From positions 32,001 to 96,000 of the forward strand of contig JBJKYD010000010.1 of the NCBI GenBank assembly GCA_045561295.1: DNA of 64,000 bases, given 5' to 3'. Made by a program: the position numbers and the translations under genes. The notes under the pieces were generated by a model. It was not told the DNA's origin and made no database searches. It saw only the letters and a list, made by a program, of their open reading frames with translations. Shown here in pieces: positions 21,821-33,668 of this stretch. The DNA comes from Gammaproteobacteria bacterium. Its GTDB lineage: Bacteria; Pseudomonadota; Gammaproteobacteria; GCA-002705445; GCA-002716945. Every line of letters begins with the position of its first letter. Position 1 is the first letter of the stretch.

Positions 21821-24274
21821 ATGATTAAAAAGATATCATATTTTTACGAACACTATATTCTAGGCTACCCAGCTTTGGTTCTCTCACTACTATCAATTAT
21901 ACTTGCGTTCTCGATGAGTAACATAAATAATTTTAAGTTAGATGCATCTGCAGATACCCTAATACTTGATGATGACAAGGACCTAAAATTATTTAGAGAA
22001 ATAAATGATCGATATGAATCAAATGAATTTTTAATTTTAACAGTTACAGATAGAAATAAAGATATTTTTGCTAATGAGACTCTTGAATACATACATAACC
22101 TAACATTAGAAATCGAAGAGTTTGCAAGTGTTCAATCAGTGACAGCAATAACTAACATACCCCTTGTTAGTAGTTCGAAAAAACCTCTAACAGAATTAAT
22201 AAATAATATTCCAAATATTTTTAGTAAAGATATAGATCCTGAGCTTGCACAAGAAGAAATATTAACAAGCCCGATTTATAAAGACTTGGTGATTAGCCAA
22301 GATGCTAAGACGACAGCTATGCAAGTTACTCTTAAAAAAAATACTGAATTAAAAGAGGCGCTTATAAAAAGAGAATTATATTACAAAAAATATAAACAGG
22401 ATGCTTCTTTTGAGACTCAATATCTACTATCAAAGCAAGAATATAATAATATATCTGAAACTCAGAAAAAAAAGATTAGTAACCTCATTAAAGAAATTAG
22501 AAAAGTTCAAGAAAAATATACTAGCGATAGATATGAGATAAGGCTTGGCGGTATACCTATGATTACTGATGATATGGTTACTTTTATAAAAAATGATTTA
22601 ATAAATTTTGGTTTAGGAGTTCTGATATTTATTTTGGCTACATTGGTAATTATATTTAGAAAATTAATATGGGTAATGACGCCAGTAATTAATTGTATTT
22701 ATTCAGTTTTGTTTATGGTTGGTTTGCTGGGTTATCTAGACTGGAAAGTAACGGTGATATCATCAAATTTTATATCATTGATGCTGATTCTGACGCTATC
22801 AATGAATATACACATTATAGTAAGATATCGACAGATATATACCTCCTCAAATCAAGACAAAAAGCTTTCTATAACTCAAACTACTCAAAAAATGATATGG
22901 CCATGTCTATATACAGCTCTAACAACAATAGTTGCATTTGCATCTTTAATATTTAGCGATATTAAACCAGTCATGGATTTTGGCTATATGATGGTACTCG
23001 GGCTTACTACATTATTTTTGACATCATTTTTTCTTCTACCTTGTTTAATCATGATTTTTTCAAATAGAAAAAATTCTATAATCCATGAAAATAAAACAAA
23101 ATTATTTGTTACTGATTTTTTAGCTGGAGTTACTATCAATTCTGGTAAATCTATCTATGTTATATTTACACTAGTAACTCTAGTAACTGTATATGGCTTA
23201 AATCTACTAAAAGTTGAGAACAGCTTTATAAATTATTTTAGATCAGACACAGAAATATATAAAGGTATGCAGCTAATTGACAATGAACTTGGTGGAACAA
23301 CGCCAATGGACATAATTATCAAATTTGATGACGAAAAATTAACTTCTGAAAATGATGAGTTTGAAGATCTATTAGGCGATGAAGATGAGCCTGTAGAATC
23401 AAACTGGTTTACAACTGACAAAATTAATAAAATTAAATATGTTCATGATTATCTAGATAAAAATTATTATATAGGAAAAGTCTTATCTTTTGCGTCCTCA
23501 ATACGTGTTGCTGAAATTGTTAATGATGATAAGGAACTAAATAGTCTTGAAATGTCTCTGCTTTATAAAAAGTTGCCTGATGAAGTTAAAGATATTGCAG
23601 TGACCCCCTATCTATCTATAGATAATAACGAAGCTAGAATTAATATTAGGATTCTAGATTCAAATCCTGATTTGAGAAGAGCTGATCTTATAAATAAAAT
23701 TCAAAATGATTTGAATCAAGACCCATATCTTAAAACAGAAAAAATTACACTTACAGGGATTCTTCTTCTTTATAATAATATGTTACAAAGTTTATTTGAT
23801 TCTCAAATAAAATCTTTAGGTTTTGTGATGTTAATTATAGCTACTATGTTCCTCATTTTATTTAAATCTATTGCATTAATGGTTATAGGAATTGTGCCGA
23901 ATCTGCTTTCAGCATTATTAGTTTTGGGAATAATGGGTATTATGAAATTACCATTAGATATGATGACTATTACTATAGCAGCCATTACTGTAGGTATAGC
24001 CGTAGACAACAGTATTCATTACATTTATAGGTTTAAAGAGGAGTTAAAGACTTGTGGTGACTACGAACAAACAATTCTTATTTGCCACTCAACTATAGGA
24101 AAAGCAATTTTTTTCACAGGTATTACGGTTATATTTGGATTTTCTATACTAATACTATCTAATTTTATACCAACAATAATATTTGGGGTGTTGACTGGTT
24201 TTGCAATGCTTGTTGCGCTGATTGCTGTTCTAACGTTGCTGCCTAGAATGCTTATCTCGTTTAAGCCTATTTAA
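21821..24274 (+). CDS. MMPL/RND-family lipid transporter (HpnN-like)
   Basis: Two repeats of 1 TM + periplasmic domain + 5 TM; [10 protein letters not shown] in the second repeat; 817 aa. Confidence 0.88.
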
Positions 24275-24281
24275 ATAGGAC

Positions 24282-24863
24282 CTATTGTCCTAGACTATTT
24301 ATAAGGGAGTCAATCCCATTTTTGTTCACATGCTCTCTAAAGTCTGCTCTGTAATTTTTCATTAAACTGATGCCTTCAAAGATAATATCGTAAACTCTCC
24401 AGCCATCCTTATTTTTGATTAATCGATAATCAACATCTATATTACCTGCTGCAATTAGATATTTTGATTTCACAAATGCAATTCTGTTTTTTTTTCCTGG
24501 AACAAAAGGTAAGAATTCTATTTTCTCACCATCAAATGCTGTAATTGATTTCATATATGTGCTCGTCATCCTATATTTAAATGCTTCTACAAAATCAGTT
24601 TTTTGTTGTGGGGTCATATCTGTCCAAATACCTTTACCAAGTATAATTTTGGACATAAGAATAATGTCAAGTTTAGGCATAACAACCAAGTTCATTTGGC
24701 TTCTTAAGAAATCTTCATCTTTCTCAAATCTATCTTTATGCTTAGAAACTAGCGCACTTACCTCCTGGACCGACTTTTTTAAGAAATCATCAGGTCTTTC
24801 CGTTGTATATCCGCTGGATGATATGAATATGAAAATTATGAAGAACGATATTTTTTTAATCAT
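24282..24863 (-). CDS. mlaC: Periplasmic phospholipid-binding protein MlaC/Ttg2D
   Basis: VDYRLxxxxxGWRVYDIIFEGISLMKNYRADF, GIDSLI; start reassigned to ATG 24863 (signal peptide MIKKISFF...). Confidence 0.9.
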   Translation of the reverse strand: MIKKISFFIIFIFISSSGYTTERPDDFLKKSVQEVSALVSKHKDRFEKDEDFLRSQMNLVVMPKLDIILMSKIILGKGIWTDMTPQQKTDFVEAFKYRMTSTYMKSITAFDGEKIEFLPFVPGKKNRIAFVKSKYLIAAGNIDVDYRLIKNKDGWRVYDIIFEGISLMKNYRADFREHVNKNGIDSLINSLGQ

Positions 24864-24891
24864 GTTACATATTTTAGTATATAATCTACTT

Positions 24892-25653
24892 ATGTCACCG
24901 ATTAAATTTAAAAATTTCTTTAGTGTATTAACCGTATCACTAGCTGTTATATTGTCATTTTCATTAGCTCTTAATGCCAAAAATGTATATTCATCAGATG
25001 ATGACCCACTTGAGCCAATAAATAGAGCAATCTTTGGTTTTAATGAAGTAATTGATGATGCAGTATTAGAGCCAGTTGCCAAAGGTTACCGAGCGATTAC
25101 TCCTGATCCAGTTGAAAAAAGTGTGTCGAACTTTTTCAATAATCTAGGAGAAATTAATAATATATTTAATAGCACATTACAGTTAAAGCTAGATAAAACA
25201 CTGTCTTCATCCGCGAGGTTTGTTATAAATTCTACTGTGGGTGTTTTTGGCTTGTTTGATATAGCTACAAGTCTAGGAATTGAGAGACATAGAGAGGATT
25301 TTGGACAAACACTTGGTCATTATGGTGTTCCAGCTGGCCCGTATCTTGTTTTACCTTTTTTTGGACCGAGTACTTTTAGAGATGCACCTGGATTCTATGC
25401 TGACATAGCAGTAGAGAAAAGTATCTCGCCAGTACATACAGAACTTCATCATGAAGAAAGGCAATTAATTCAAGCTACTAATGTTATAGACACCAGGGCA
25501 AACTTGTTACAAGCAACAAAAATCTTAGATACTGCAGCAAAAGATAAATATATATTTTTAAGGGAATCATATCTTCAAAAAAGAACAAAAATGATTGCGG
25601 ATGGCAAAAATGTCCAAGATTTTGAAATCGATGTTCTTGAAATTAACTACTAG
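24892..25653 (+). CDS. mlaA: VacJ/MlaA family outer-membrane lipid asymmetry protein (no lipobox Cys)
   Basis: DPLEPINRAIFGFN, RFVINSTVGVFGLFD, EDFGQTLGHYGVPAGPYLVLPFFGPSTFRD, DKYIFLRESYLQ; start reassigned to ATG 24892. Confidence 0.92.
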   Translation: MSPIKFKNFFSVLTVSLAVILSFSLALNAKNVYSSDDDPLEPINRAIFGFNEVIDDAVLEPVAKGYRAITPDPVEKSVSNFFNNLGEINNIFNSTLQLKLDKTLSSSARFVINSTVGVFGLFDIATSLGIERHREDFGQTLGHYGVPAGPYLVLPFFGPSTFRDAPGFYADIAVEKSISPVHTELHHEERQLIQATNVIDTRANLLQATKILDTAAKDKYIFLRESYLQKRTKMIADGKNVQDFEIDVLEINY

Positions 25654-25683: not shown

Positions 25684-26610
25684 ATGATGATAGAATCCAT
25701 ATCTATCTTGTTAATAGGACTAGCACTATTATTAATAGGATCTAATCTTTTAGTCGCATCAACTGATAATGCTTCTAAGCGTTTTTCGATATCTGGCTTT
25801 TATGCAAGTTTCTTTATGATTGGTATAGCAACATCAGCACCTGAAATTTTTATATCAATCGAATCAGCTCTTCAAGATAAAACAATTTTAGCAATAGGAA
25901 ATGCCCTTGGTTCAAATATCTCAAACATAGCTTTAGTATTTTGTATTTCTCTTTTTTTTATTAAAGGAGATTTGATAAAAGAGAATCTTCCTATAAGGCC
26001 CTATGCGAGTATGATCATATTGACTATTTCAGCTTTCGTATTAATGTTTTTTGATGAACGTCTTGATATAAAAGACTCTTTAATATTGATTGTACTACTA
26101 ATATTATGCGTGAATTTTTTTCAACCTCCAGAGGACAAAAAGCCTGCTGATAACAAAGGGAGCGCTAGTTTATCAAATATAATTTTTTATCTATTACTAA
26201 GTTTAGCGATGTTAATATTTGGATCAACCTACTTCATAAATGGTGCAACTCAAATTGCAACAGCTCTAGGTGTAAGCGCATACGTAATTGGTCTTACGTT
26301 AGCCGCATTAGGGACAAGTTTACCTGAACTTGCTGCTAGTATTCAATCTGCAAGAAAAGGGAAATTTGATTTTATAATTGGAAATATTATTGGCTCAAAT
26401 CTCTTTAATATTGCAATAGCTATGTCGATTGCTGGGATAATCAGCTCTTCACATATAGAATCTGACGCTCTTGTAAGAGATATCATGATGCTTGGATTGT
26501 CAACATTAGTTCTCTACCTTATTATTCAATCAAATAGTATGTTTAGAACTGTATATTCAGTGGCATTAGTAATAACATACTTTTTATACTTAACGTTAAT
26601 TTTAAAATGA
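25684..26610 (+). CDS. yrbG: Ca2+/Na+ antiporter family protein (YrbG-like)
   Basis: Alpha repeats ATSAPE...GNALGSNISN and GTSLPE...GNIIGSNLFN; upstream of kdsD. Confidence 0.88.
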   Translation: MMIESISILLIGLALLLIGSNLLVASTDNASKRFSISGFYASFFMIGIATSAPEIFISIESALQDKTILAIGNALGSNISNIALVFCISLFFIKGDLIKENLPIRPYASMIILTISAFVLMFFDERLDIKDSLILIVLLILCVNFFQPPEDKKPADNKGSASLSNIIFYLLLSLAMLIFGSTYFINGATQIATALGVSAYVIGLTLAALGTSLPELAASIQSARKGKFDFIIGNIIGSNLFNIAIAMSIAGIISSSHIESDALVRDIMMLGLSTLVLYLIIQSNSMFRTVYSVALVITYFLYLTLILK

Positions 26611-27575
26611 TAATGAAAAATAAATCTAATATTAGCCTTGCAACAGAAATTATTAAAACTGAGATAACAGCCCTAACAAGGACTTTGAAAAGGATTGATT
26701 CAAGCTTTGATAGAGCATGTGAATTGATTAAAAAGAACTCAGGAAAAGTAGTTACAATAGGTCTTGGTAAGTCAGGATATATTGCTATGAAAATGGCTGC
26801 CACGTTAAGTAGTACTGGAACTCCGTCGATTTTTATACATGCTACAGAGGCTCTTCATGGTGACATGGGTGTTATAAATTCAAATGATATAATTATATTT
26901 TATTCCAATTCTGGAGATACTGAAGAAATAGTTAAGCTTGTGCCTTTGCTAAAAGTTCTCAAATGCAAAATAATTTCAATCACAGGTAATAAAAAATCAC
27001 AGCTAGCAAAATATTCAGATTTGGTTCTAGATGCCTCTGTTACCAAAGAAGCCTGTCCAAATAACCTAGCCCCAACATCGAGTGTTATGTGTGCACTAGC
27101 TATTTCTGATGCCTTAGCTCTGACAGTCTCATCAAAAAAGAATTTTACAATGAAAGATTTCGCCAAGACTCATCCAGAGGGTTCTCTTGGTAAAAGATTA
27201 TTAAAAAATGTTCAAGACATAATGATCAAGAAAAATATTCCTAAAATAAATATAGATGTAAGCTTCTCTGAGCTTATCAATATGACTACAGAATATAATT
27301 TAGGAATTGCTTTAATTATAAATAAAGAAAAAAAATTAGTAGGAGTAATAACTGATGGCGATATAAAAAGAATAATGAATGCTCATAAGAATATTGATGA
27401 GATTCTAGTCAAGAATGTAATGACAAGAAAGCCTTTACATGTAAGTAGTGATATCCTCGCAGCTGAAGCATTATCAGTTCTCGAGAAAAATAATATTAGC
27501 GTATTGCCTGTAATAGATAAATCGGCAATTAAAGGTATCATTACCATGCAAGATCTAATTAAATCTATTAACTAA
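26607..27575 (+). CDS. kdsD: Arabinose-5-phosphate isomerase
   Basis: GLGKSGYIA, EALHGDMG, EACPNNLAPTSS, HPEGSLG; two CBS domains. Confidence 0.95.
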   Translation: MIMKNKSNISLATEIIKTEITALTRTLKRIDSSFDRACELIKKNSGKVVTIGLGKSGYIAMKMAATLSSTGTPSIFIHATEALHGDMGVINSNDIIIFYSNSGDTEEIVKLVPLLKVLKCKIISITGNKKSQLAKYSDLVLDASVTKEACPNNLAPTSSVMCALAISDALALTVSSKKNFTMKDFAKTHPEGSLGKRLLKNVQDIMIKKNIPKINIDVSFSELINMTTEYNLGIALIINKEKKLVGVITDGDIKRIMNAHKNIDEILVKNVMTRKPLHVSSDILAAEALSVLEKNNISVLPVIDKSAIKGIITMQDLIKSIN

Positions 27576-27576
27576 A

Positions 27577-28122
27577 ATGATTAACAAGTCAACATATATA
27601 AAATTAGCAGAGAAATTATACACAGATAAGCTTATTGATAAGGCTAGTAAGATAGAATTGCTAGCATTTGATGTAGATGGTGTTCTTACAGATGGCGGGT
27701 TATATTTTGATCATAATGGTAACGAGAGTAAGAGATTTTATGCACAAGATGGACATGGAATAAAAATATTACAATCAATTGATATTGATATAATGATTAT
27801 ATCTGGTCGTTATTCGAAATGTGTAAAAGAAAGAGGAGAAGAACTTGGCATCCAAAGAATTATTCAAGGTAGCAGGGATAAACTAAAATCATTTCATGAA
27901 CATAAAATAAATCTACCAAAAGAAAAGTTATGTTATGTTGGTGATGATACCGTTGACGTTGAACTTCTACAGTTTTGCGGGTTATCGGTAATTGTTCCAA
28001 ATGCTAATCCAATACTGAATCTATTAAATTTTGACTGGGTAACTCCTAGACGAGGAGGAAATGGGGCAATTAGAGATATCTGTGATTTAATATACTTTTC
28101 TAAAATAATTAATGCTCAGTAA
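27577..28122 (+). CDS. kdsC: KDO-8-phosphate phosphatase
   Basis: FDVDGVLTDG, QDGHGIK, YVGDD, GGNGAIRDICD. Confidence 0.95.
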   Translation: MINKSTYIKLAEKLYTDKLIDKASKIELLAFDVDGVLTDGGLYFDHNGNESKRFYAQDGHGIKILQSIDIDIMIISGRYSKCVKERGEELGIQRIIQGSRDKLKSFHEHKINLPKEKLCYVGDDTVDVELLQFCGLSVIVPNANPILNLLNFDWVTPRRGGNGAIRDICDLIYFSKIINAQ

Positions 28123-28780
28123 AATTAAAGTCCGGCTTATCTTCTTTATATATCTTCTTTCAAGTACAACTGTTTTTGGGAATTCGTCAGAAAGTAATAT
28201 TTTGATCAAAAATCAATTATATAATTTTTCTACGATAAAAAATAACAAAGATATGACAATTGATTGGGAACTTAAAGGAAGCATGTTGACAAAATACAGC
28301 AATAATATAACCCTAATTGAAAAACCATTTCTCAATATATATAAGACTACATCTACAGTTGATATAAAATCTGATACTGCCATAGATCCATCAGGTAATA
28401 TGGAAGAAATATATTTAAAAGATAATGTATTTATTAATAGAGAATATCTTCTAGATGATATTTCAATGAAGATGTATACATCTTATGCAATTTTCTATGT
28501 ATCAAAAAATTTATTTGAAACTGATCGTGATGTTACAATCATTACTTCTGATTCTACAACGACTGGTTCAGGTTTATCTGCTAACATGGATACTGGCATT
28601 ATCAGAATTTTAAGTAATGCTAAGAGAATAGTAAGAGATAATGATAAGTCTAGAACAATTGAAGGTAATCAAATGATTTATGATGCTAATAAAGAGAAAT
28701 GGACAGTCAAAGATGTAGCTGCAAATAATTTAAAAAAAATAATTACAAAAAAAGTTACTACAACATTTTACGTCAAATAA
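28112..28780 (+). CDS. lptC: LptC-like LPS export protein with an LptA-like C-terminal extension
   Basis: Lies between kdsC and lptB; LptC beta-jellyroll pattern (ETDRDVTI...TTGSGLSANMDTGIIRILSN) plus about 45 extra residues. Confidence 0.72.
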   Translation: MLSKIKVRLIFFIYLLSSTTVFGNSSESNILIKNQLYNFSTIKNNKDMTIDWELKGSMLTKYSNNITLIEKPFLNIYKTTSTVDIKSDTAIDPSGNMEEIYLKDNVFINREYLLDDISMKMYTSYAIFYVSKNLFETDRDVTIITSDSTTTGSGLSANMDTGIIRILSNAKRIVRDNDKSRTIEGNQMIYDANKEKWTVKDVAANNLKKIITKKVTTTFYVK

Positions 28781-28781
28781 T

Positions 28782-29507
28782 ATGTCTATTCTTAAATGCA
28801 ATAATCTTGAAAAGAATTATAACACAAAAAAAGTTGTTCAAGATATATCTATAGAGGTTGCTTCCGGAGAAATTATTGGTTTGCTTGGTCCTAATGGAGC
28901 TGGTAAGACAACAACTTTTTACATGATAGTAGGCCTTATAAAATCAGATTTAGGCTCTATAATAATTGATGATGTAGATATTACCTTGGTACCAATTCAT
29001 AAAAGATTTGAATATGGAATTAGTTATTTACCTCAAGAGCCTTCAATCTTCCGCAACATGACCGCACTTGATAATATTAAGGCAATATTAGAGACAGACA
29101 ATAAATTGAGTAAACAGAAAAAGAAAGATATCCTTGATGAACTAATTATTAGGTTTGATCTTAAAAATTTCTTAAATACCCAAGGTATGCAGCTTTCAGG
29201 TGGCGAAAGGAGAAGAGTTGAAATTGCAAGAGCATTAGCCTTAAGACCTAAGTTCCTACTTTTAGATGAGCCCTTTGCAGGAATTGATCCTCTTTCCGTA
29301 ATAGATATTCAGGAAATAATTAAAGAACTGTCGCTAGCTAATATAGGTATCTTAATCACAGATCATAACGTTAGAGAAACCTTAAAAATATGTGATAAAT
29401 CCTATGTAGTAAATACCGGACAAGTACTTGCTTCAGGTAAAACAAAAGATTTGATTAAAAATGAGACTGTCAAAAAGGTATATCTAGGTGAAAAATTTAA
29501 ACTATGA
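28782..29507 (+). CDS. lptB: LPS export ABC ATPase
   Basis: GPNGAGKTTTFYMIVG, YLPQEPSIFR, LSGGERRRVEIARAL, LITDHNVRETL. Confidence 0.97.
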   Translation: MSILKCNNLEKNYNTKKVVQDISIEVASGEIIGLLGPNGAGKTTTFYMIVGLIKSDLGSIIIDDVDITLVPIHKRFEYGISYLPQEPSIFRNMTALDNIKAILETDNKLSKQKKKDILDELIIRFDLKNFLNTQGMQLSGGERRRVEIARALALRPKFLLLDEPFAGIDPLSVIDIQEIIKELSLANIGILITDHNVRETLKICDKSYVVNTGQVLASGKTKDLIKNETVKKVYLGEKFKL

Positions 29508-30838
29508 ATAAATTAAAACAATCCATTCACCTAAAACAAAAAAAAATCTTGTCGCACCAGACAAGACAAGCCATTAACATTTTACAACTAAACTCTCTTG
29601 ACCTACACAAAGAAATAGAAAATATTATTCTTGAGAATCCTTTTCTTGAAAAAGAAGTAGATATGGAACCTAGTTATAACTTGGAACATTCTGTTCGATC
29701 TAATAATGCTGATATTGAAGATATATTAAGCTATCACTATGACTCAGATAATTTAAGAGAATATTTAAATAAACAACTTGATACATCCTCATTTTCTGAA
29801 GAAGAAAAAAAAGTAGCTTTAATAATAATTGATTGTGTAGATGATAACGGCTATCTAACTGAAGATTTAAGAGAGATATTCATAGAAGCTAATAGAATAA
29901 GTGAAGTATCTTTTCAAGATATATTCTATATACTTCATACTCTCCAAAGATTTGATCCTGTTGGTACCTGCGCTATTGACCTATGTGACTCGTTAAATAT
30001 TCAGCTAGATCATTACCATAAACAATCAGATTATTATGATAATGCAAAAGATATACTAGATACTCTTAAAGGTGTAGATATTAATGAAAAGTTGAATTTT
30101 GATAGAGTAATCAAATTAATAACTAATGATGAAATTTCTAATGAAAAAACTCTAGCTCTTTTAAAAAGACTTAATCCAAAACCTGGATTAATAATCTCTA
30201 AAAAACTTAATACTTATCATATCTATCCTGATGTAATAATCTTTAAAAGAAATAATCAGTGGATAGTTGAATCAACAAAGAACACTCCTGTTCTCACTAT
30301 GAATAGAGAATATATTTCACTGATGAAAGATAGTAAAATTAAGTCAGATAAGGATTATTTAGAAAAAAACTATAATCAAGCAAAATTTATTATTAAATCT
30401 ATCAGCAATAGAAATATAACCATACTTAATGTATGTAATGAGATATTTAAAAGGCAATCAAAATTTTTAAATGATGGTGATATTGGAATAGTACCAATGA
30501 CTTTAAAAGAAATATCTAATTCTTTAGATGTACATGAATCTACAGTATCAAGGGCCACCAACAATAAATATGTACAAACCCCAAGAGGAGTATATGAACT
30601 TAAGTATTTCTTTTCATCAGAATTAAGCACTAATACTGGTAAAATGGTATCTTCAAAAGCGATAATGAAAATGATTGATGAGATCATTAAAAATGAAGAC
30701 AAAATGAAGCCCTCAAGCGATAGCCAAATTTCAAAATACTTCGAAGATCAAGGAATTTCTGTTGCCAGAAGGACAGTGACGAAGTATAGAGAGAAATTAA
30801 ACATAGAAAAATCAACAGAAAGAAGAGTTAAGAATTGA
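29504..30838 (+). CDS. rpoN: RNA polymerase sigma-54
   Basis: Region I (QAINILQL...ENPFLE), HESTVSRATNNKY, ELKYFF, RpoN box ARRTVTKYRE. Confidence 0.96.
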   Translation: MNKLKQSIHLKQKKILSHQTRQAINILQLNSLDLHKEIENIILENPFLEKEVDMEPSYNLEHSVRSNNADIEDILSYHYDSDNLREYLNKQLDTSSFSEEEKKVALIIIDCVDDNGYLTEDLREIFIEANRISEVSFQDIFYILHTLQRFDPVGTCAIDLCDSLNIQLDHYHKQSDYYDNAKDILDTLKGVDINEKLNFDRVIKLITNDEISNEKTLALLKRLNPKPGLIISKKLNTYHIYPDVIIFKRNNQWIVESTKNTPVLTMNREYISLMKDSKIKSDKDYLEKNYNQAKFIIKSISNRNITILNVCNEIFKRQSKFLNDGDIGIVPMTLKEISNSLDVHESTVSRATNNKYVQTPRGVYELKYFFSSELSTNTGKMVSSKAIMKMIDEIIKNEDKMKPSSDSQISKYFEDQGISVARRTVTKYREKLNIEKSTERRVKN

Positions 30839-30839
30839 A

Positions 30840-31298
30840 ATGATAAACATTAAACTAGATGACTCTCAAATAAGCATAAATGATGATTGTAGAAGTAAAA
30901 AAAGTATATTAGAGAGATTGTCTTTATTATTAAGTAAGTCCTCTGGGATTAGTACTGACGAGATATTTGCTGGTTTATACGAAAGAGAAAAATTAGGATC
31001 TACATCAGTTGGCAATGGCGTAGCTATACCTCATGCAAGAATTAAAGGCATTAATCATCCATTTGTTTCAGTAATTATACTAGATAACCCAATTGACTTT
31101 GATAATATTGATAGCCTTGATGTAGATATTGTTGTTTGTTTAATTGTTCCTACTGAAGAGACAGAAAATCATCTTACTCTGTTGGCATGTTTAAGCGAGA
31201 TTCTTGATAAAATATCAAATAGGAAAAAACTGAGAAGCGCCAGAAATAGCGAAGAAATATTACATTGCTTGGAATCAACTGACTTGATATTTATATAG
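30840..31298 (+). CDS. ptsN: PTS IIA nitrogen-type protein
   Basis: EREKLGSTSVGNGVAIPHAR; follows rpoN. Confidence 0.9.
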   Translation: MINIKLDDSQISINDDCRSKKSILERLSLLLSKSSGISTDEIFAGLYEREKLGSTSVGNGVAIPHARIKGINHPFVSVIILDNPIDFDNIDSLDVDIVVCLIVPTEETENHLTLLACLSEILDKISNRKKLRSARNSEEILHCLESTDLIFI

Positions 31299-31679
31299 AT
31301 GAACGTAGGTATATTAATAATTACCCATAGTGACATTGGCAAGCAAATGCTGCTTACTGCGACTTCTGTCTATGGAAATAATCCTTTTCGCGTTGAGTTG
31401 TTATCGGTTGATAATTATGACCAACCGAATGATGTAATCCAACTTGGTCAAAAATATGTCAATTTTTTAGATGAAGGAAAGGGAGTTTTGGTTTTAACAG
31501 ATATAATTGGAACTACTCCATCTAATATTGCTAAATCTATTAAACATCAGAAGATTAGAATTGTAGCAGGATTAAATTTATCAATGATTTTAAATGTTTT
31601 TAACTACCCTAAATATTCCCTTGAAAATCTTGCTGAAAAAGCAATTGAGGGAGGTATTGACGGTATCATGAATCTATAG
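31299..31679 (+). CDS. Stand-alone PTS EIIA, mannose/fructose type
   Basis: GILIITH, GVLVLTDIIGTTPSNIA, AGLNLSM. Confidence 0.9.
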   Translation: MNVGILIITHSDIGKQMLLTATSVYGNNPFRVELLSVDNYDQPNDVIQLGQKYVNFLDEGKGVLVLTDIIGTTPSNIAKSIKHQKIRIVAGLNLSMILNVFNYPKYSLENLAEKAIEGGIDGIMNL

Positions 31680-31683
31680 AAAT

Positions 31684-31953
31684 ATGATTACTAAAGATTT
31701 ACATGTGTTAAACAAACTTGGACTTCATGCAAGAGCAGCTGCAAAATTGGTTTTCATAGCAAATAAATTCGTATCTGATATTACTCTTGTAAAAGATGAC
31801 AAACAGGCAGATGCTAGAAGTATTATGAAAATACTCATGCTGTCTGCTTCGAGAGACTCTATTATAAATATTACTGTTGAAGGTAACGATGAAATTCAAG
31901 CAATGAATTCTATAGAAAAACTATTTCAAAATAAATTTGATGAAGATTCATGA
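31684..31953 (+). CDS. ptsH: Phosphocarrier HPr/NPr
   Basis: NKLGLHARAAAK (His15) and ARSIM (Ser46). Confidence 0.92.
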   Translation: MITKDLHVLNKLGLHARAAAKLVFIANKFVSDITLVKDDKQADARSIMKILMLSASRDSIINITVEGNDEIQAMNSIEKLFQNKFDEDS

Positions 31954-33668
31954 GCATAATTATTAAAGGGTTAAGTGTATCCACAGGCATATGCATAGGA
32001 AAAGCAACTTTAATTAGTAAAGATGATATTAACTATGCGCCGTCTTTTATCAAAAAATCTCAAGTAAAAACTGAAACTAAAAGATTTCTAAAATCGCTAG
32101 CTAGTATCAAGGAAGAGTATAAGAAATCTAGAGAAAAAATTAAAGATAATTTACCGATGGCTAAACTTATAGAAACACAATTGTTCTTTATCGAAGATCA
32201 AGATTTCCAAATGCATATTATTGAAATGATTGAAAATAATTTGTATACAGCAAATTGGGCAATTGCAATTGAATATAAGAGTATTAAAAAATCTTTCGAT
32301 GATATTAAAGATAAATATATAAAAGAAAGATTAATAGATATAAAGCAAATGGTAATGAGCTTACTAGATCTTCTACAGTCGAATAAAAAAGAGAATATAT
32401 ATAGTAAGATTAGCTTAGAAAGTAAGGTTGTTATTACTGATGAAATAACACCAAAAGATGTTATTGATATCTACCAAAAGCAAGGTTCGGGCGTAATAAC
32501 ATCCCATGGTAGTAAATCGTCTCATAGTGCAATATTAAGTAAGAGTCTTTCTTTGCCTATGATAGTTAAAGCAGAATCCTCAAAAGAAGTTATTCGGGAT
32601 AATGATGACATTATTATGGATTTGGATAATGAAATTATTATTGTTAATCCCGACCAATTTGAACTTGAATACTTTAAAGGTATTCAATCACACAGATATT
32701 CATTGCAAAAAAGTTTAAGGAGAGTTTTAAAGAAAAAGTCACTTACTGATGATGGAATAAAAATAAATATTATGTCTAATTTAGAATTATCAGACGAAGT
32801 AAAGTTTTTAAATAATAATTGTGATGGAATAGGATTATATCGAACTGAATATTTATATATGAATAGAAATGATCTTCCTTCAGAAAAAGAACAAATGTCT
32901 GTTTATGCGAAAGTTTTCAAAGCTATGAAAAATAAGCCAGTCACACTGAGAACACTAGACATTGGTTCAGACAAAGAAGTATCTGAAAATATAAAAGTTG
33001 GAGACATTGCCAAAAACCCTGCTCTTGGACTCAGAGGAATAAGATATAGTCTTGCCGAAAAAAATATATTTCAGACCCAAATCAAAGCTATGTTGAGAGC
33101 TGGATATAATAATTCATTAAGGATATTGATACCAATGATTACATCCCTTAATGAAATCATCAAAACAAAAGAATTAATAAATAATGCAAAATTAGAATTG
33201 AAAAAAGAAAGAAAGAAATTTACAAATAAATATGACCTCGGAATTATGATTGAAGTTCCTGCATGTGCATTACAAGCTGATGAACTGGCTAAACATGTAG
33301 ATTTCATGTCTATTGGTACAAATGATTTGATTCAATATACTCTTGCAATAGATCGAATTGATGATGAAGTATCGAGTCTATATGATCCTACTAATCCAGC
33401 AGTGTTGTCTTTAATAAAAAAAGTTATCGAATCATGTAACAAATCTAGTATTGATGTAACTGTTTGTGGTGAAATGGCAGGAGAAAAATCATATACAAAG
33501 CTACTACTAGGTCTTGGATTAGAATCATTTAGTATGCATCCTCAAGCAATACCTGAGGTAAAAGATATTATCCTGAATAGTAATATTAATAAAATTAAGA
33601 GAAAAGTTAATGCGATTTTAAAATCTAATGATAGATTCCTAAGAGAAAAGTTAATAAGCAATCTCTAG
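31950..33668 (+). CDS. ptsI: PEP-protein phosphotransferase, enzyme I (no GAF domain)
   Basis: SHSAILSK (phospho-His), GIGLYRTE, NPALGLRGIR, SIGTNDLIQY, VCGEMAG. Confidence 0.95.
   Translation: MSIIIKGLSVSTGICIGKATLISKDDINYAPSFIKKSQVKTETKRFLKSLASIKEEYKKSREKIKDNLPMAKLIETQLFFIEDQDFQMHIIEMIENNLYTANWAIAIEYKSIKKSFDDIKDKYIKERLIDIKQMVMSLLDLLQSNKKENIYSKISLESKVVITDEITPKDVIDIYQKQGSGVITSHGSKSSHSAILSKSLSLPMIVKAESSKEVIRDNDDIIMDLDNEIIIVNPDQFELEYFKGIQSHRYSLQKSLRRVLKKKSLTDDGIKINIMSNLELSDEVKFLNNNCDGIGLYRTEYLYMNRNDLPSEKEQMSVYAKVFKAMKNKPVTLRTLDIGSDKEVSENIKVGDIAKNPALGLRGIRYSLAEKNIFQTQIKAMLRAGYNNSLRILIPMITSLNEIIKTKELINNAKLELKKERKKFTNKYDLGIMIEVPACALQADELAKHVDFMSIGTNDLIQYTLAIDRIDDEVSSLYDPTNPAVLSLIKKVIESCNKSSIDVTVCGEMAGEKSYTKLLLGLGLESFSMHPQAIPEVKDIILNSNINKIKRKVNAILKSNDRFLREKLISNL

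Follow-up and report, generated by a model that had tools for sequence, protein, structure and literature searches.

An extended LptC and the apparent loss of lptA in a streamlined marine gammaproteobacterial order: a possible six-protein lipopolysaccharide bridge

Analysis of a 64,000-nucleotide (nt) stretch of contig JBJKYD010000010.1 (GenBank assembly GCA_045561295.1, positions 32,001 to 96,000 of the forward strand; hereafter the window), from a gammaproteobacterium of the order GCA-002705445, showed that one open reading frame (ORF) of 222 amino acids (aa) fills the space between kdsC and lptB in a locus for lipopolysaccharide (LPS) export. The ORF encodes LptC with a C-terminal tail, and no lptA was found at the locus, in the rest of the genome or in the order, by three kinds of query. 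The loss of lptA and the conservation of an order-specific LptC tail are solidly supported. The best explanation, which stands about an even chance of being correct, would be that this is the LptC of an LptA-less bridge of six proteins, in which LptC contacts LptD directly. LptA is essential in Escherichia coli. The window has a G+C content of ~30% and its genome comprises 1.03 Mb in 19 contigs; the order consists of one family with six genera, and its genomes are all ~1 Mb.

The genes on either side of the extended lptC were placed as follows.

27577..28122, plus strand: kdsC, a HAD-type phosphatase (Pfam Hydrolase_3, E 2.9e-07); its final 11 nt overlap lptC.
28112..28780, plus strand: extended lptC, 222 aa (ORF; Pfam LptC, TIGR04409, AlphaFold).
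28782..29507, plus strand: lptB, an ABC-type ATPase (Pfam ABC_tran, E 6.2e-34); it begins one base past the lptC stop.

The name kdsC was given from the position in the cluster, and the same position is kept in related loci. The cluster reads yrbG-like exchanger, kdsD, kdsC, lptC, lptB, rpoN, ptsN, EIIA-Man protein, npr and enzyme I homologue. This is the order that we take to be canonical for E. coli and the enterobacteria (yrbG-kdsD-kdsC-lptC-lptA-lptB-rpoN-...-ptsN-...-npr), minus lptA. An earlier reading of the letters alone (the original prediction) had described a 222-aa ORF with an LptC domain, separated from lptB by a 1-nt gap, and no lptA beside it, and each of these statements was borne out. 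The order kdsC, lptC (218-264 aa), lptB was found in all 30 loci fetched from the marine order, with lptC directly abutting lptB; in one of them lptB was split into two frames. A long LptC was present in 35 of the order's 37 genomes, representing all six genera, with matches extending to query residue 202-222; the two genomes that gave no such match are 81% and 87% complete. Conservation in relatives, which the original prediction had proposed as a check, is thus seen across the order. In the other families of the class, the fetched loci told a different story: an lptA frame lay between lptC and lptB in 15 of 16, and was fused to lptC in the remaining one.

The genome of the window was searched for a separate lptA. 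PF03968 matched only the 898-aa LptD frame (E 0.007), while TIGR03002 gave no match at E<=10 and PF13100 none. A hidden Markov model (HMM) was then built from 15 LptAs, all taken from the class's other families, and run, with filters off, over 4119 stop-to-stop frames of at least 50 aa; LptD was again the best match (E 0.15), with nothing below it. The weak candidates from this HMM included one frame of 129 aa without a family (L060, E 0.6); the others proved to be ClpP, EF-Ts, a small membrane protein and an SCP2 protein. Across 30 distinct genomes of the order, all PF03968 matches fell in frames of 738-937 aa, i.e. LptD. A search with an LptA alignment over all 37 genomes produced four weak matches (E 0.016-0.13), two in LptD frames; the other two, a 216-aa frame from two genomes of one genus, were rejected as a cytochrome c with two CxxCH motifs. 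The 222-aa ORF itself was not recognized as LptA by PF03968 (none at E<=1) or TIGR03002 (none at E<=10), and reached only E 3.1 with the class HMM. PF03968 did find a match (E 1e-9 to 1e-30), in a 155-310-aa frame, in each of the 16 genomes sampled from the class's other families. The search for a separate lptA, also proposed earlier, therefore turned up none in the window's own genome or in its order. One further genome of the class (G031, 1.7 Mb) has, at L059:1944-2886, an unusually short lptC of 164 aa without a Pfam match at E<=0.01 and a likewise short lptA (152 aa, PF03968 E 3.8e-09).

The 222-aa ORF is a bona fide LptC jellyroll. Its parts were delimited as follows.

28112..28180, plus strand: residues 1-23, N-terminal hydrophobic segment, a membrane anchor or cleavable signal (predicted local distance difference test score, pLDDT, low for residues 1-27).
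28181..28624, plus strand: residues 24-171, LptC jellyroll core (extent of PF06835; hhalign probability 99.7%).
28625..28777, plus strand: residues 172-222, C-terminal extension, outside every LptC model.
28661..28711, plus strand: residues ~184-200, extra beta-hairpin with strands 187-191 and 196-200 (AlphaFold; the LptC chain 6mit_C ends at model residue 183).
28724..28768, plus strand: residues 205-219, basic C-terminal segment, predicted helix (AlphaFold, block pLDDT 93 and 88; hhalign).

Pfam LptC (PF06835) matched residues 24-171 with E 1.6e-18 (67.4 bits against a cut-off of 21), and TIGR04409 matched residues 10-171 with E 2e-20 (73.1 bits against a cut-off of 38). Alignment to LptC of the same class with hhalign gave a probability of 99.7%, and the ORF was the sole PF06835 match in the genome. 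An AlphaFold model from a 29-row alignment had a mean pLDDT of 87.3, with blocks of 93-97 for residues 31-210. Foldseek ranked LptC chains best for this model, then LptA, then LptD. With a structural aligner, LptC chains superposed at Z 15-17.5 with a root-mean-square deviation of ~2 A over 122-147 residues (6mit_C: Z 17.5, 2.5 A, 147 residues; 3my2: Z 15.3). Membership of the LptC family is thus indicated alike by the sequence cut-offs, the superposition of the jellyroll and the place after kdsC. An NCBIfam match to a Shiga-toxin subunit model was dismissed as chance (16 bits against a cut-off of 720).

The tail was defined by sequence and by structure. Residues 39-189 of Enterobacter LptC 6mit_C superpose on model residues 31-183 (Z 17.5), LptA and LptH structures on residues ~49-180 (Z 12.3-12.9), and LptD N-domains through residue 202 (Z 13-14.7). 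The structural surplus over canonical LptC is consequently ~38 residues (~184-222), consisting of one hairpin and the basic terminal segment. The original prediction had counted about 45 extra residues; the extension is real, and its surplus by structure is somewhat smaller. Strands in the model are continuous (163-176, 179-185, 187-191 and 196-200) and are followed by a helix at 205-219. The extra hairpin carries a G-x-x-M-I-Y-D/N motif and the invariant W197. Across the order the tail aligns nearly without gaps, with G185, Y190, W197 and T217 invariant, and its conservation is about equal to that of the core (majority-residue fraction 0.54-0.57 against 0.60). Among 1.84 billion representative proteins, 2419 LptC relatives were identified with a profile of the family. 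Among the best 150 of these, only 10 reached profile position >=230, while the remaining ones ended by position 200; ordinary LptCs of 185-200 aa end at positions 181-197. All 10 (E<=1.4e-15) are members of the window's order group or fragments of such members, and the tail is therefore peculiar to that order. A tandem LptC-LptC protein of 320 aa (P0130), with two Pfam LptC stretches, was also seen among the representative proteins, another natural lengthening of the inner-membrane end of the bridge.

Sequence comparison suggested that the tail resembles the C-terminus of LptA. Aligned to LptA of the class with hhalign, it matched end to end on the last ~40 columns (score 22.6, P 0.0017, probability 15%), and a repeat with the tool's own alignments gave 23.1 (P 0.0013, probability 18%). 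The tail motif L-E-G-x-Q-M-I-Y-N/D was paired with F-x-G-x-x-I-x-Y-D of LptA, the site of the one invariant Tyr in the LptA alignment, and R/K-V-K/T-T-I/T-L/F was paired with R-V-x-x-x-I-x-P. The basic segment 205-219 thereby sits opposite the final conserved 'RV...I.P' stretch of the LptA consensus. Comparison with class LptC gave P 0.24, and with the protein's own core P 0.015 (score 17.3). No column shuffle out of 120 reached the observed 22.6 (mean 9.5, standard deviation 1.8, maximum 15.0), and the reversed tail scored 11.3. Sliding windows that included the tail scored 19.4-22.9 against 12-17 for windows of the core, and always fell on the C-terminal third of LptA. In a BLASTP comparison of 30 tails to a set of 15 LptA, 15 LptC and one fusion protein, LptA gave the best match for 25, LptC for three and the fusion, in its LptA half, for two. 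Nineteen of the 25 LptA-best alignments end near the LptA C-terminus, and matches at E<1 numbered 104 to LptA and 20 to LptC. In the ESM Atlas, residues 160-222 retrieved only mixed LptC, LptD_N and OstA fragment clusters, at a score of 0.92, which serves as a lead only. The general OstA-type nature of the tail is clear. Its descent from LptA is, as judged from these alignments, about evenly balanced, and LptA ancestry with direct docking on LptD would be a reasonable reading. A match of the tail profile to D-Ala-D-Ala ligase among the sequences of solved structures (E 0.21) was attributed to chance.

These data are consistent with a machine that would run with six proteins (LptB2FGC-DE). LptC would dock on LptF/LptG by its N-terminal edge, as in the solved complexes, and would present its extended C-terminal edge to the N-terminal jellyroll of LptD, passing LPS on directly. 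LPS would then slide along one continuous groove formed by LptF/LptG, LptC and LptD only. Because neither the LptD jellyroll nor LptF/LptG is lengthened, such a bridge would be shorter by about one LptA unit, and would require a narrow periplasm or a local approach of the two membranes. The tail may have arisen by an in-frame fusion and deletion between the adjacent lptC and lptA that kept the LptD-recognising part; this is the least certain step. The terminal helix may be a lid displaced on docking or may form a separate contact, for which the extra N-terminal domain of LptD would be a speculative partner.

Several observations weigh against this scheme. The surplus of one hairpin cannot cover the whole LptA distance, and the LptD jellyroll is not lengthened either (C178 to C311, 133 residues). 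In an E. coli reconstitution lacking LptA, no LPS reached LptD (PMC12065857). The one full natural LptC-LptA fusion encountered here, in genome G037, is a singleton. With regard to the tail, windows of ordinary LptC scored 23-32 (up to 31.8) with hhalign against non-equivalent parts of LptA, so a score of 23 lies within the general likeness of jellyrolls. The 30 tails are close kin, hence 25 of 30 is not a count of independent cases, and the individual E-values are weak. Neither an LptA HMM nor the sequence of a solved LptA matched the tail or the full profile at E<=10. The original prediction had called the tail LptA-like; it is indeed closer to LptA than to LptC, albeit weakly, and LptA models do not recognize it. 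The last 15 residues are predicted to form a helix (block pLDDT 88-93), which does not fit an exposed docking strand, and the stretch of LptA equivalent to it appears to be LptA's last strand, judging by the alignment and by the residues visible in 2r19 and 2r1a. That the terminal '...KKVTTTF...' forms an LptD-docking edge strand, as had been proposed, is therefore contradicted by the model. The hydrophobic moment of residues 204-220, calculated for helix and for strand, was no guide here, as a known-strand control behaved alike. Nor does the ORF qualify as a full LptC-LptA fusion, with an LptC domain and only ~50 further residues; the surplus of one hairpin and a segment is far below an LptA domain. 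Finally, the search for lptA has limited sensitivity. PF03968 sees even LptD at only E 1e-3 to 1e-5 and, among 25 genomes of the order, left 10 without a match; in so AT-rich an order there is a small chance that a very divergent LptA elsewhere could escape such searches. The window's genome is 92% complete, with lpxC falling in a gap.

A doubtful but serious alternative is that the tail would be a lineage-specific elaboration of LptC, such as a duplicated hairpin or newly recruited sequence. It might still aid contact with LptD, or it might cap or regulate the open end of the groove with the helix as a lid. The tail does align to an N-terminal hairpin of its own core, including a conserved Trp, at the score of 17.3 given above, and the generic likeness of LptC to LptA, the predicted helix and the failure of every LptA model to match the tail would all be compatible with such an origin. 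The match to the LptA C-terminus is however the stronger one (22.6-23.1 against 17.3), runs co-linearly from end to end and takes in both conserved C-terminal motifs of LptA, and the BLASTP preference for LptA points the same way. Moreover, the gene missing precisely at the junction is lptA.

The N-terminus of LptC bears on another possibility, namely that the extended protein associates with itself head to tail and acts as its own LptA, which would be easier if an N-terminal signal were cleaved. The hydrophobic stretch measures 14-28 residues in all sequences, and a crude count gave no separation of anchor and signal groups. By our reading of the alignment, the window's genus has a short N-terminus with small residues and a polar stretch after it, resembling a signal peptide; the other five genera have a longer, anchor-like hydrophobic segment, likewise trailed by an S/T-x-A motif. 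A signal-like start in the window's genus would suit self-association, pairing between an LptA-like C-terminal edge and an N-terminal edge of the jellyroll would be possible in principle, and the tandem P0130 shows that LptC units do occur in series. On the other hand, the segments are anchor-like in five of six genera, and in E. coli it is LptF, and not a further bridge unit, that the N-terminal edge of LptC binds. Self-association is considered unlikely.

It is also conceivable, though very unlikely, that another place in these genomes encodes a very divergent LptA or a non-homologous replacement, in which case the bridge would keep its middle piece and the tail would be adapted to that partner. 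The low sensitivity of HMMs in this order, shown by the weak and often missed LptD N-domain, would allow for this, as would the incomplete genome of the window and the family-less 129-aa frame L060 among the weak candidates. Three kinds of LptA query were nonetheless negative in up to 37 genomes, including ones that are 98-100% complete, lptC and lptB abut in every fetched locus, and every other sampled family of the class keeps lptA at this spot.

Lastly, an assembly or sequencing artefact, in which a deletion in silico took out lptA, is barely conceivable in view of the identical architecture in 30 loci of separately assembled genomes and of unchanged contigs from other studies. At E<=0.001, 450 relatives were obtained in a protein search; among the best 120 of these most are 222 aa long, identity goes down to 67% and many marine metagenome sources are represented. 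Entries of 175 aa match the length from Met48 to the end and were read as shorter calls of the same protein. Near-identical DNA was present in 14 marine metagenome runs. Contigs from runs X14 (27747-28397 and 28657-28822) and X8 (28567-28822), which belong to different studies, crossed the kdsC-lptC and lptC-lptB junctions without difference and showed no indels or joints. With these contigs bridging both junctions and the 30 loci, mis-assembly, which the original prediction had listed as a possible refutation, is excluded. Contigs from RNA libraries (X15, 28603-28868; X16, 28521-28822) also crossed the lptC-lptB junction, without differences, indels or joints. As an RNA library can contain DNA, these give only hints that the junction is transcribed.

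The order keeps the rest of the pathway, namely LptB, LptF, LptG, LptD, LptE and lipid A synthesis. Genes for LptF, LptG and LptE are present, and the open frames of LptF and LptG measure 362 and 379 aa. The E. coli proteins are of comparable, ordinary length. LpxC was found in 33 of the 37 genomes of the order and in all 17 high-quality ones, and was not found in the window's own assembly, most likely owing to an assembly gap. Since this gap shows that genes can hide, an absence from the window's genome alone is to be read cautiously.

LptD is encoded outside the window by a frame of 898 aa (G000:C13:60509-63205, minus strand). From the N-terminus, it comprises a signal-like start, a BamE domain (PF04355, residues 59-125, E 1.4e-12), a linker, a jellyroll and a barrel (PF04453, E 3e-51). 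The BamE domain borne by LptD is the sole match in the genome above the Pfam cut-off; a broken frame of 25 aa reached E 0.18. BamE was matched in 22 genomes of the order, and in 20 of these the match lies in a frame of LptD size (860-956 aa). The two exceptions have BamE in short frames of 145 and 168 aa, and in one of them (G003) this frame adjoins the LptD frame. Of the 16 genomes from other families, 15 have BamE in a frame of 114-388 aa; the 16th, which is 62% complete, gave none. By our reading of the alignment, the signal region of LptD has no conserved lipobox Cys. The BamE-LptD fusion, as predicted from these frames, is a second order-wide peculiarity of the same machinery, and a literature search found no description of it. 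Within the jellyroll the invariant C178 and C311 delimit the 133 residues noted above, and the corresponding Cys span of E. coli LptD is similar in length.

Structure prediction for LptD was less informative. AlphaFold of the first 430 residues gave a mean pLDDT of 53 from a 12-row alignment, with a poorly predicted linker; the usable parts were the jellyroll at ~190-270 (pLDDT 70-85) and part of BamE. A predicted complex of LptD residues 45-340 with LptC residues 28-222 scored 0.14 against a mark of 0.32, in a run without controls, and speaks neither for nor against docking. Taken together, the two peculiarities might reflect a marine order that has rebuilt a minimal envelope machinery, with a six-protein LptA-less bridge in which LptC captured the LptD-docking end of LptA and LptD captured the sole BamE domain. 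This joint reading is put forward tentatively and is held with somewhat less than even confidence.

The extended LptC was compared with known proteins. It shares family, fold, place after kdsC and an N-terminal hydrophobic segment with LptC (YrbK) of E. coli, Enterobacter and Vibrio (3my2, 6mit, 6mjp, 9doq). It differs from these in its ~38 additional C-terminal residues, in the lack of an adjacent lptA and, in the window's genus, in a more signal-like N-terminus. With LptA (YhbN; PF03968, TIGR03002; 2r19, 2r1a; 4uu4, which is LptH) it shares the fold class, and its tail shares the patterns G-x-x-I-x-Y-D and R-V-x-x-x-I. However, no more than two or three strands of LptA could be present, and the last segment is predicted to be helical.

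Two engineered or selected systems offer parallels. An engineered LptC-LptA fusion bound LptB2FG in a stable complex and supported ATP-dependent crosslinking of LPS to LptD in vitro (PMC12065857). By analogy, both that fusion and the protein described here may link the inner-membrane complex to LptD as one polypeptide, although only a short tail is kept in the latter. Mutants of E. coli with LptF R212G assemble a bridge of six proteins that lacks LptC, provided that LptA is overproduced, and they remain sensitive to novobiocin (PMC9972910). Both bridges would have one jellyroll component fewer; LptC is missing there and LptA here, where the arrangement is natural and ancient.

A natural parallel exists in G037, a genome from another family of the class. 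A 307-aa ORF (L055:1994-2914, plus strand) lies between kdsC and lptB, and carries Pfam LptC at 15-161 (E 5e-27) followed by LptD_N/LptA at 168-278 (E 3.5e-23). As this ORF has both domains, in-frame fusion of lptC and lptA does occur in nature. A search of 5.8 billion clusters for relatives of this fusion returned only itself, and the set has no other genome from the family or the order of G037. The locus is the same as in the window, but the G037 protein keeps nearly the whole LptA domain, and its reality is less secure as it comes from a single genome. Published work notes that Proteobacteria have an lptABC cluster and that Borrelia has a system of six proteins without LptE (PMC8871954, PMC10353723). 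In the open-access and bioRxiv literature, no description was found of a natural gammaproteobacterial Lpt system without LptA or of a natural LptC-LptA fusion.

The number of jellyroll units that a working bridge needs is debated, and the contacts of LptA with LptC and with LptD are targets of thanatin-type antibiotics. If the six-protein scheme holds, this would be the first natural LptA-less bridge, and would offer a handle on the minimal length and composition of the LPS bridge. LptC would then be adaptable enough to reach LptD directly, a lower bound would be set on bridge length, and the tail may point to residues that confer specificity for LptD. The arrangement also bears on envelope simplification in genome-streamlined ocean bacteria, and the BamE-LptD fusion hints at a wider rewiring of outer-membrane assembly in the same lineage.

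The remaining genes of the cluster in the window were assigned as follows.

25684..26610, plus strand: yrbG-like Na/Ca exchanger gene (Pfam Na_Ca_ex, E 6e-50), the upstream end of the cluster.
26607..27575, plus strand: kdsD, arabinose-5-phosphate isomerase type (Pfam SIS, E 1.3e-24; CBS, E 6e-19).
29504..30838, plus strand: rpoN, sigma-54 (Pfam Sigma54 DBD, CBD and AID domains).

Past rpoN, the interval 30840-33668 holds ptsN (EIIA-2), a gene of EIIA-Man type, npr (HPr) and a homologue of enzyme I, and among these neither an hpf-type nor a rapZ-type gene was seen. Just 5' of the cluster, at 21821-25653, Pfam and NCBIfam identified an MMPL-family exporter of 817 aa, mlaC (minus strand) and mlaA. 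As these adjoin the cluster, genes for lipid trafficking and for LPS export are grouped together in the window.

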